Source: a virus (taxonomy: Duplodnaviria; Heunggongvirae; Uroviricota; Caudoviricetes). From it: a DNA stretch of 46,008 nt. This document shows positions 39,001 through 42,000 of this stretch, piece by piece. Where the stretch lies: IMG/VR virus record IMGVR_UViG_2721755662_000006; one strand, 5' to 3'. Position 1 is the stretch's first letter, and each line of letters begins with the position of its first letter. The position numbers were made by a program.

Positions 39001-42000
39001 CCATCCCCTGGGTTACCCCAACAATTTCAGCAAAATGTTTCTGAGTTATACCGGAATAACGCAAATATTCTCCAAGATTCATTGTTCACCTCATGTGATG
39101 TCATCACGATCATTAATAGCATTGTTATTTTTAAAAGTAAATAGCACCACTATTTCAAAGAGATTAATAATCTTATTAGAATTGAAGGTATGAAAAGAAA
39201 ATCCCTGTCAGAGATCGACCTGCAAGCCGCCCAGAGACTAAAAGAAATCTGGACGGCGAAAAAAAATCAACTAGGGTTAACCCAAGAGCGTGCGGCAGAA
39301 ATTCTGGGATTTTCGACACAGGGAGCTGTAAGCCATTATCTAAATGGTCAGACACCTTTAAATCTTGAGGCTGTTATCAAGTTCGCAGGGTTACTGCAAG
39401 TTCCTCCCGAGTCAATCAGACCAGATATGGCCGAGTTGTTACAAATTGTAAGGATGTATCCCCAAGAATCTGGGGAGGACAATGTTGTCACTATATCTGC
39501 CGATATGGAACAATCGGAAAACGAACTTCCGTTTAATATAGACCCCATGGAGCGGGATTTGCTCCAGACGTTCAGGGCTTTCCCCAAAGAAGATAAAGAG
39601 AAAATGCTTAAGGAAATGAAGGAGAAAAAAGAATCAATTGAAGAAATCGTTGCGCGATGGCTAGCTGCGCAAAAAAGTCGTCGCGCCTAATCTGAGGAGG
39701 TCAAAACATGAGTACAGCCCTTTCCCCGATAATTTCTGAATTTGAAACGGTCGAACAAGAAAACAGCTATAACGAATGGTTGCGAGCCAAAGTGGCAGCA
39801 AGCCTCGCAGATCCCCGTTCTGGAATTCCGCATGATGAAGTAATGGCTGAAATGGAAAACCTTATTGCTCAATTAGCTACAACGAACAGGAGTGAGTAAT
39901 GCTGCCCATTTTATGGCTACCTTCTGCACGTGATGATTTACGTCAGATAGTAGCCTATATTGCTAAAGAAAACCCTCCCGCTGCACGTAGACTAAAAATA
40001 CGCATTGAAACATCAGTTTTGTCACTTACTGAACACCCTTATCTGTACCCACCGAGCGAAAGAGTTCCAAGTCTTCGAGAGATAGTGACTCATCCTAACT
40101 ACATAATACTTTACCGAGTAACAACATCTAACATCGAGATCGTAAATGTAGTTCACTCACGAAGGCAGTATCCAAACAAAAGCTGTTAATCATTTCTGTC
40201 AAAAACCACCTTCGGGTGGTTTTTTTCTTGCCGTGATAATAGCATTGCTATTTACATAATTAAATAGCAGTGGTATTGTTTATGCATCAACCCACCCCGT
40301 CCCACAGAATGCAGGGCAATACTTCGAGTTACCCGGCAGTGGCAAGGGGTTAAGTAGCCAGCCCGAGGCGTATGAACATGACGGCGGGAACACTTTGTAT
40401 AACAGCGCAGCAGGTTTTTAGTTCCGCGACCCGGCGTTAAGGGTAAATGAGGTCAACATGGATACGCTCAATCTTGGCAACAACGAATCTCTGGTATGCG
40501 GCGTGTTTCCCAACCAGGACGGCACGTTTACCGCGATGACGTATACCAGAAGCAAAACGTTTAAAACTGAAGCTGGCGCGCGTCGCTGGTTAGCCAGAAA
40601 CACTGACTGATGAGGTTGACGATGGAATTTAAAGATTTACCAGTACCATTCCAGGAAATGGCAGCGAATATAGTTCGTTCTCAACTGGCGACTCTTGACC
40701 TGAGTACCGTAGAAAAAGAAACCATCGATAATATATCCGGTAACGTGCGTCGAACCTTTATCGGGCTGTACGAAGAAAAGTGGCCATTCGGCGGACAACA
40801 TTCGCCTGAAAACAAGAATCAAGCGAATGATGAGAAGCTGAAACACGTTATCGCCTTACTGCTGGAAGATGCAAAACGTCTACAGCAACTGGAACCAAAT
40901 GCAGGCACCGAAGCCCGCATCTGGATTGCCATAGAATCACTCAAATGTGAAAGCGATGATTATTTAAAAACCATAATTAAAACAACTCAGCTTTCTGAAG
41001 AGCTACCGAAGAAATTGCCATAATAATATGCTTTTCTTATAGAGGGGTTAGAAATATGGGCCAGCATTATAGCAGGCACATATAACAGAAAGTATTTTAA
41101 ATATTACGCCGTATCTTGTGATTGTTTTTTAATATATTCATACAAGCGCACAAGTTGTTTCAACTCTTCAAAGCACATAGCGGAATTTTCAATTTTTCCG
41201 GCGTTGATTAGTGCCAGAAGAGCCTGATGTGCGCAAGCATATGGATCAATTACAGGGCTAATAATATCAACTTGCATATTATCCTCCATAGAGGTTCCGG
41301 GTTAATGATGGAGACCAACACGCTGTCACGTGTGGTCGTGCGCCGGACACGGATAAGAATCCGGCACTGACAGTTTGCTGAAAGAACATATCCCTGAAAA
41401 GTCAGGGCATAACACGAAAGCGCACGGCGAAGTTAGTCTCTCTGTACTTTGTCGTTAAATTTAATTCGACCGTGCGCTTCCGGTTGTGGCAATCCGCGAA
41501 ATGGCGCGGCGGTAAGTATGGCTGGGGCTTCCTCCATTGCTCCAGAAAATGCACCGGGTTGTCAGGTTGACCATACGCCTGAGTGACAACACCGCCACAA
41601 CAACCTCTGTTATCACTTTTCTGGTGATTCGGCGGAAATGGGTATCCGCCATTTTTAAAGTGTATTTTGTGATGCGGTGAATGCGGCTAAGCGCACGCGG
41701 AACAGTTAAAACAAGCGGTCTTTTACTGGCGTAACAGACATCAACTAACAATCCGGCGTTAATTGTTAACTGGTTAACGTCACCTGGAGGCACCAGGCAC
41801 CACATCACAAAATTCATTGTTGAGGACGCGATAATGGAAACGTCACTACCAAACGTTAATACGTCTGAAGGGTGTTTTAATATTGGTATTCTGCTCAGTA
41901 ACCGGGAGTTTACTGAGGACGCCATCAGGATGAGAAAATATGAGCCTTATCTTCTCAATGATAATTCCATACTCTCCAGAATTGCCCTTCTTGAACTTGG

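Follow-up and report, generated by a model that had tools for sequence, protein, structure and literature searches.

A probable dicF segment with a short DicF allele in the early-left operon of an Stx2a-converting prophage

Introduction

What an apparently gene-free stretch of about 500 bp does in the early-left region of a prophage is the question raised by positions 41290-41830 of the IMG/VR virus record IMGVR_UViG_2721755662_000006 (Caudoviricetes), a 46,008-nt sequence that is called the window below. The window is an Stx2a-converting prophage that adjoins yccA, with 100% identity to E. coli FORC_069. A preliminary description, made from the sequence alone, had proposed a plus-strand small RNA (sRNA) or a leader ending near 41657. 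The interval is best explained as the non-coding dicF segment of a dicB-type early-left operon in this Stx2a prophage, to which we assign a probability of roughly 75%. The dicF region belongs to a prophage operon that inhibits cell division; elements of this kind have been known since 1989-90, and the identity of the locus with this known system had gone unrecognised in the preliminary description.

Results and discussion

Homology to the dicF region of K-12

Positions 41337-41938 of the window align at 78% with the ydfC-dicB intergenic region and dicB of the Qin prophage of K-12 (K-12 L002 2603-3214, where dicF and dicB are annotated). This alignment supports the proposal of a plus-strand sRNA or leader ending near 41657. 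Homology to Qin starts at 41337; from there on the proposed interval stands, and its left 45 nt (41290-41336) lie outside the conserved module and hold the start and a promoter-like site of a minus-strand open reading frame (ORF) of 58-61 aa. In K-12, dicF has the same position and orientation, between ydfA-type genes and dicB, and 78-90% identity to the window is found in the long hairpin, the leader core, the A/U-rich linker, the GGCGG/CCGCC stem base with the U-run, and the downstream helix. The first 10 nt of the sRNA are identical in the two alleles. The terminator interior is 10 nt in the window and 27 nt in K-12, giving an sRNA of 34-39 nt versus 53-58 nt, and upstream of the module the window has a RelBE pair, a 137-aa ORF and a minus-strand ORF where K-12 has ydfB/ydfC. 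The features of the module, all on the plus strand, are as follows.

41342-41365, plus: short hairpin GCCGGA/UCCGGC forming the 5' border of the conserved module; the majority of related loci have it, some lack it
41392-41407, plus: hairpin CCCUGA-AAAG-UCAGGG, perfect in the window type only
41408-41488, plus: long hairpin H_A on the inverted repeat AAAGCGCACGG/CCGUGCGCUU, with 15 consensus pairs
41483-41601, plus: leader core of 120 nt, with closing helix GUUGUGGC/GCCACAAC (41483-41490/41594-41601)
41494-41509, 41510-41556 (apical stem 41522-41545) and 41558-41590, plus: core hairpins
41610-41627, plus: small hairpin UAUCAC/GUGAUU, pairing the DicF 5' seed with the sequence just upstream (consensus structure and minimum free energy fold)
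41618-41651 (with U5, to 41656), plus: short DicF allele UUUCUGGUGAUUCGGCGGAAAUGGGUAUCCGCCA followed by U5, 34-39 nt (K-12 dicF alignment, fold and terminator scan)
41652-41679 with 41798-41826, plus: long-range helix H_B, with core repeat 41661-41679/41798-41816
41683-41698, 41755-41781 and 41783-41797 (CCUGGAGGCACCAGG), plus: hairpins inside H_B
41834-42022, plus: dicB, 62 aa, the gene served by the leader (Pfam DicB PF05358, E 7.4e-34; RefSeq annotation of the identical FORC_069 locus)

The repeats, hairpins and plus-strand terminator of the preliminary description were each found where it had placed them when the window sequence was re-examined, including the AAGCGCACG repeat at 41689, the hairpins GCCGGA/UCCGGC and CCCTGA/TCAGGG, and the clean terminator GGCGGA-N8-TCCGCC (41631-41650) followed by ATTTTT. 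The distance from the U-run to the dicB start is 178 nt. The gene order of the operon is repressor, DUF1391/ydfA-like gene, leader, dicB, DUF1482 gene, exonuclease gene and integrase gene, and it is identical in O157:H7 EDL933.

In K-12, DicF is processed out of a ydfABC-dicF-dicB-ydfD transcript in which an internal promoter was not found, and its 3' end arises at the intrinsic terminator or, on read-through transcripts, through RNase III, which gives 72 nt (PMC10448788, PMC5069750, PMC9438474). A 190-nt species is RNase III-dependent and a 53-nt species RNase E-dependent; the 190-nt species, core included, accumulates stably in stationary phase, and terminated and read-through transcripts both exist without any known factor (PMC10448788).

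Comparative analysis, strand and coding potential

Terminator-like matches are not enriched in the region (7 versus 4.3 +/- 2.1 expected in 3.6 kb) and both strands fold better than shuffled sequences (z -4.7 and -5.9), so the evidence from the single sequence is weak and the case rests on related sequences. The comparison set consisted of 100 non-identical related loci from an IMG/VR scan. By conservation and covariation in these loci, and by homology to the experimentally mapped dicF of K-12, the features are real; the flanking helices and the cleavage linker are among the conserved parts. Choice of strand by single-sequence folding was uninformative, since both z values were strongly negative, and G.U pairs and covariation were used instead. 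The consensus fold favours the plus strand (-93.8 versus -83.1 kcal/mol; 108 versus 82 pairs), and several covarying pairs are G.U in many sequences, which is possible on the plus strand only.

That the region encodes a 154-aa minus-strand protein, or another small protein, is extremely improbable. An open frame of 154 codons (ORF154, 41461-41925, minus) is present in the window, but it is open only where the short allele removes stops, has no Pfam match and overlaps dicB antisense. The longest minus-strand stop-free run in the related loci reaches 122-129 aa in four of them, with a median of 76 aa and fewer than 80 aa in 64/100, and substitutions follow base-pairing, not codon patterns. The other small frames of the region were rejected by the comparative frame and Pfam analysis. 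As a frame without conservation, ORF154 was rightly read as non-coding in the preliminary description.

A short DicF allele lacking the ftsZ-pairing segment

The short allele shows the DicF pattern, with UUUCUGGUGA as its single-stranded 5' end and behind it a Rho-independent terminator whose GGCGG/CCGCC stem precedes a U-run. It also has the placement of DicF, in a dicB operon on the same strand, with ydf-type genes upstream and dicB downstream. Its fold consists of a 13-nt single-stranded 5' tail, a 6-bp stem (the terminator at 41631-41650) with an 8-nt loop, and the U-run (-11.1 kcal/mol). Only nt 1-10 and the GGCGG/CCGCC stem base are common to the short allele and K-12 DicF, and the interior 27 nt of K-12 are replaced by 10 unrelated nt. 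A covariance-model search, which the preliminary description had put forward as a check, gave no match at a gathering threshold in the interval, and at E<=10 it returned a sub-threshold STnc100 alone. For the Rfam DicF model (RF00039, gathering threshold 48 bits), no match was found even at E<=10 in 41000-42100; the K-12 dicF control scored 76.7 bits under the same settings.

In computed duplexes, nt 25-52 of K-12 DicF pair with -29..0 of ftsZ at -27 kcal/mol and nt 26-53 pair with -27..0 of pykA at -26.6 kcal/mol, and the short allele has no counterpart of either pairing segment. Its best duplex with ftsZ, -14.9 to -18.1 kcal/mol through its own stem, is no better than those of shuffles. For xylR, GGUGACGUU of K-12 pairs with +9..+19; the short allele reads GGUGAUUCG and the perfect 9-bp duplex is lost, the xylR-pairing segment being GGUGAUUCGG in the window versus GGUGACGUUUGG in K-12. 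The stretch specific to the short allele is GAUUCGGCGGAAAUGGGUAUCC. The ftsZ, pykA and xylR pairing segments of K-12 agree with genetically defined regions (PMC5069750). Since the interior swap has removed the ftsZ/pykA-pairing segment and the xylR stretch is changed, the short allele most likely leaves ftsZ unrepressed.

The 5' tail UUUCUGGUGAUUCGGCGG is the same in every copy of the short allele that was seen, and the loop varies (AAAUGGGUAU, AAAUGGAUAU, AAACGGAUAU). Three terminator-interior alleles occur among ~120 viral contigs. The third, with the 25-nt interior CAUCUGUUUGCCCAUGAACUGAUGU and 56-57 nt in all, was observed in E. albertii (loci L009, L106 and L132) and is likewise without the ACUCCGU anti-ftsZ core.

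The 5' end of K-12 dicF is annotated at the U homologous to 41618. Homology would place the RNase E cut generating the 5' end of DicF in the loop of hairpin 41610-41627, between 41617 and 41618; dependence on RNase E was demonstrated in K-12 only (PMC10448788). Two variant-specific alternative pairings were also observed, in which CUCCAGAAAA of the core (41540-41549) is complementary to the DicF seed UUUUCUGG (41617-41624), and AAAUGGCG (41499-41506) to the terminator 3' arm CGCCAUUU (41647-41654). Either could sequester the seed or compete with the terminator.

Flanking helices and the dicF-dicB spacer

The paired 11-mers of the preliminary description, AAAGCGCACGG (41417-41427) and CCGTGCGCTT (41470-41479), both lie within a 13-nt inverted repeat (41415-41427/41470-41482, 92% complementary). 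They form the long hairpin H_A, whose role as the structure that RNase III most likely cuts had escaped that description. Almost all of the 15 consensus pairs of H_A are Watson-Crick or G.U in the 100 loci. H_A is probably the RNase III site that makes the 5' end of the long DicF precursor, because the 190-nt RNA of K-12, which ends at the terminator, has to start within the 3' arm of the K-12 counterpart of H_A.

A further inverted repeat of 19 nt (41661-41679/41798-41816, 89% complementary), which flanks the stretch between terminator and dicB, had been missed. It is the core of H_B, whose 26 consensus pairs comprise 2094 Watson-Crick cells, 486 G.U and 20 other. The 72-nt end of K-12 DicF falls in the 5' arm of the helix homologous to H_B, and by this analogy H_B is probably the RNase III site for that end on read-through transcripts. 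As the 3' arm of H_B extends to the ribosome-binding site of dicB, processing at this place may influence translation of dicB as well.

The hairpin at 41392-41407 reads CCCTGAAAAGTCAGAC in the K-12 type, with a weaker stem, and lies outside the consensus structure. It was considered as a lambda nut/boxB site, for which a conserved 5-bp stem, a GNRA-like pentaloop, a boxA and an N gene at the operon start were the criteria. This was rejected, as the stem has 6 bp and the loop 4 nt, the hairpin is degenerate in the K-12 type, and no N-like gene is annotated in the early-left operons of the window or EDL933.

The dicF-dicB spacer (41649-41866) scored 33.0 bits (E 3.5e-5) against STnc100 (RF02076), below the gathering threshold of 47, and the K-12 spacer scored 34.4 bits, likewise below gathering. 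Like the STnc100/PasD family (RF02076; bioRxiv 10.64898/2026.05.13.724894), the spacer has an outer helix GGUGAAU...CACC, inner hairpins and a CCNGGAGGCACCNGG hairpin in the same order. Unlike STnc100, which is a stand-alone late-region sRNA, it is an mRNA leader just upstream of dicB in the early-left operon and has no terminator of its own. The window also holds a full STnc100 sRNA match (192 bits; 27150-27365, minus), directly downstream of stx2B (27440-27709); compared with this true copy, the spacer gave an nhmmer E of 0.018.

A conserved leader core followed by variable terminator hairpins

Covariation of the leader core was tested on 18 diverse sequences, with the closing helix and the three hairpins as the structure and with 500 shuffles and slid controls. 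In these sequences 95.9% of cells are paired, and 9 pairs are changed on both sides, versus 2.2 +/- 1.1 in shuffles (0/500 shuffles reach 9; slid controls gave 0-4). RNAalifold on the 100 sequences had paired GGUUGUGG into an extension of H_A, a solution that was set aside, as the 18-sequence alignment and the covariation counts favour GUUGUGGC/GCCACAAC. In addition, the near-invariant loops GUAUGG (41516-41521) and CCAUAC (41571-41576) are complementary and form a candidate loop-loop pairing. It is compensatory in phage P1 (GCAUGG/CCAUGC) and has a G.U in one locus, and 24/500 shuffles reach this. The pseudoknot, with one lineage behind it, is only suggestive.

The core has no Rfam match at E<=10 and is single-copy in the window, where a search for a second copy was negative. 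A core-pattern scan with one genome per species found it in Escherichia, Shigella, Citrobacter, Serratia, Trabulsiella, Erwinia and Izhakiella. In every lineage a terminator-type hairpin follows within ~10-40 nt 3' of the core; its interior differs, and its base is usually GGCGG/CCGCC. Outside Escherichia, no dicB lies downstream of the core. The Erwinia locus has an S24 repressor gene, then a DUF1391-like gene, the core, the hairpin and the early-left genes.

The 'dicF-like region' annotated in phage P1 (misc_feature 68791-68892, NC_005856) corresponds to this leader core, and P1-like phages carry it as well. The P1 sequence has compensatory changes, both in two of the helices and in the candidate loop-loop pairing. 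The P1 core (L128, NC_005856 68739-68900) lies downstream of the C1-controlled P1ban promoter/operator and upstream of the tRNA genes and of the ban operon. A strong unrelated terminator, GCCCAUCUUCGGGUGGGC-U8, comes after it, and there is neither DicF seed nor dicB. With a terminator at this place, an attenuation or read-through step, as yet unexplained, is implied for the ban operon.

Other hairpin interiors were seen as well. At non-Escherichia loci the hairpin after the core encloses a Shine-Dalgarno (SD) sequence and a start codon (AGGAG...AUAAUGUUCUACCG) between GGCGGUACC/GGUACCGCC arms, followed by a U-run (L143, Erwinia tracheiphila, ~4640-4720; also L133, L141 and L144). Citrobacter has yet another interior, UUUUUUCCUUAGUCCUUU.

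Distribution of the short allele

The short allele is present at 528 places in 442/5426 complete E. coli genomes, among them EDL933 and numerous further O157:H7 strains, and it also occurs in E. albertii. Canonical DicF is found in 4015 of the complete E. coli genomes (7266 places), and the short allele is often alongside canonical copies. In EDL933 the short-allele locus has the same gene order and no non-coding RNA annotation. Four DicF copies were detected with Rfam in EDL933 (PMC5331693), so the unannotated short-allele locus is an additional, fifth one. The Stx2a and O157-type prophages thus carry a further DicF-like allele that model-based annotation has missed.

Absence of RefSeq annotation is not evidence of novelty, since canonical dicF copies are unannotated in many RefSeq records too. 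The short allele is undescribed in the searchable literature, which left out Melson and Kendall 2019 and Faubladier and Bouche 1994, and nothing relevant on the P1 ban leader or on DicF variants was found there. New relative to the searchable literature and databases are a short form of DicF from which the ftsZ-pairing module is missing, and a leader core that is widely conserved, covaries and comes with exchangeable terminator hairpins.

DicF is a textbook case among prophage sRNAs. Work on enterohaemorrhagic E. coli, based on "four copies" of dicF, reportedly links oxygen limitation through DicF to type III secretion and Stx2 expression. Judged by its sequence, the short allele cannot act on ftsZ in the way of DicF, and it may be a residual or divergent regulator in strains deleted for the four canonical copies.

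Proposed mechanism and alternative explanations

For a FORC_069-type strain, transcription of the module, the RNase cleavages and any trans-acting activity of the product are predicted by analogy with K-12. A plus-strand polycistronic transcript would start upstream at the repressor-controlled early-left promoter, pass the ydfA-like gene and fold in order into H_A, the 120-nt multi-hairpin core, the A/U-rich linker and the terminator hairpin, and after read-through into the 26-bp helix H_B, which ends at the dicB ribosome-binding site. As in Qin of K-12, RNase III would cut H_A and free a precursor of ~170 nt, and an RNase E cut in the linker would make the 5' end of the sRNA. Its 3' end would be set at 41651-41656 by the intrinsic terminator or, where transcripts continue into dicB, by an RNase III cut in H_B. 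The short allele may then act on other targets via its 13-nt 5' tail, or may serve mainly as a terminator and processing signal metering dicB. On this analogy, the function is most likely a K-12-type processing pathway that yields a divergent or attenuated sRNA and meters dicB, and a separate regulatory role for the core is possible. Like DicF, the 3'-UTR or intra-operon, RNase E-processed sRNAs CpxQ, SroC and SdhX are released endonucleolytically from a longer mRNA just upstream of the terminator hairpin. Unlike them, the sRNA of the dicF locus is flanked on both sides by RNase III helices and preceded by a large conserved structured domain.

Several points weigh against the identification as a functional dicF segment. 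The target-pairing energies come from a simple duplex calculation that has no accessibility terms. K-12 has a stronger terminator than the short one of the window (6 bp, -11.1 kcal/mol, U5), and an RNA of 34-39 nt that offers little sequence for target pairing may fail to function as an Hfq-dependent sRNA. The short allele is absent from the isolated phage genomes of the INPHARED collection. The region upstream of ydfA, the site of dicBp in K-12, is not conserved in the window, which fits a different immunity type. In addition, the promoter scan found no plus-strand promoter-like site in 41030-41340, and the minus-strand ORF at 41104-41289 separates the upstream genes from the module.

The same sparse pairing sequence lends some weight to a decayed DicF without trans action, which together with the RNase III helices would be a partial terminator and processing signal that limits, and also shapes, how the toxic dicB and the remainder of the early-left operon are expressed. 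All three genetically validated pairing regions of K-12 are missing or altered, just the 13-nt tail and the 8-nt loop are left, and that loop varies among the short alleles. The extension of H_B to the dicB ribosome-binding site points the same way, as does a search for targets of the 13-nt tail within the window, in which complementary sites were no commoner than chance. The invariant tail argues against a purely cis-acting element, and so do the retention of the allele in 528 places, often beside canonical copies, and the identity of its first 10 nt with functional DicF. sRNAs can act via seeds of 7-10 nt. A role in cis only is tentatively entertained, and we regard it as distinctly less probable than a dicF segment of the K-12 kind.

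Rather less likely still is that the leader core is itself the regulatory RNA, controlling read-through of the terminator in cis, by N-independent antitermination or as a switch sensing a ligand or protein, with the interior as an exchangeable sRNA cassette. The covariation and the near-invariant loops would suit such a role. So would the presence of the core across genera and in P1, where the terminator-type hairpin behind it has another interior each time and no dicB follows outside Escherichia, and the place of the P1 copy right after the C1-controlled P1ban promoter and before the genes of the operon. The lack of an annotated N-like gene in the window and EDL933 operons is also compatible with it, as is the stability of the core-containing 190-nt species in stationary-phase K-12 (PMC10448788). 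Yet processing alone explains the K-12 data, where terminated and read-through transcripts arise with no known factor; the pseudoknot is supported by a single lineage, and a conserved processing platform would yield the same pattern of constant core and variable hairpin.

The constant core with a variable terminator hairpin suggests that phage sRNAs are made or controlled by a modular scheme, of which the searchable literature holds no description. In its widest form, which we consider doubtful and the least probable of these cis-regulatory readings, the core would be an undescribed family of phage cis-regulatory RNAs, a compact domain, perhaps pseudoknotted, that heads the early-left operons of N-less lambdoid and P1-like phages and governs read-through or processing at the following terminator, the interior again being an sRNA cassette. 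A partner of the core might then be the small DUF1391/YdfA protein, the product of the first gene of the operon; directly upstream of the P1 copy there is no DUF1391-type gene. Short DicF would belong to a set of at least six cassettes that differ in their host targets. If the core serves processing only, the finding is an ordinary allele of a known locus.

Genomic context

The remaining annotated features of the window are as follows.

27440-28680, minus: stx2AB
33117-33441, minus: hok/sok module, with sok RNA (113 bits) beside a Hok/Gef family gene
39190-39690, plus: helix-turn-helix repressor gene, 166 aa, in the early-left arm
39708-40189, plus: RelB/RelE-type toxin-antitoxin pair, between the prophage repressor gene and the ydfA-like gene
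40458-40610, plus: DUF1391 (ydfA-like) gene, followed by the 137-aa ORF
41104-41289, minus: ORF of 58-61 aa, antisense within the early-left operon, just upstream of the dicF module

By its position the RelB/RelE pair lies inside or at the head of the early-left unit. The minus-strand ORF at 41104-41289 has no Pfam match; some of the related loci share its SD sequence and ATG (TATCCTCCAT when read on the plus strand), and its presence makes one ask from which promoter the dicF-dicB module of this phage is transcribed. On the 3' side of dicB lie genes for a DUF1482 protein, an 800-aa exonuclease, a DUF4224 protein and the integrase.

In the identical RefSeq record, the tail tip J, a tail protein and a prohead protease/capsid fusion (3276-17541, minus) are annotated as frameshifted, so this Stx2a prophage may be defective.

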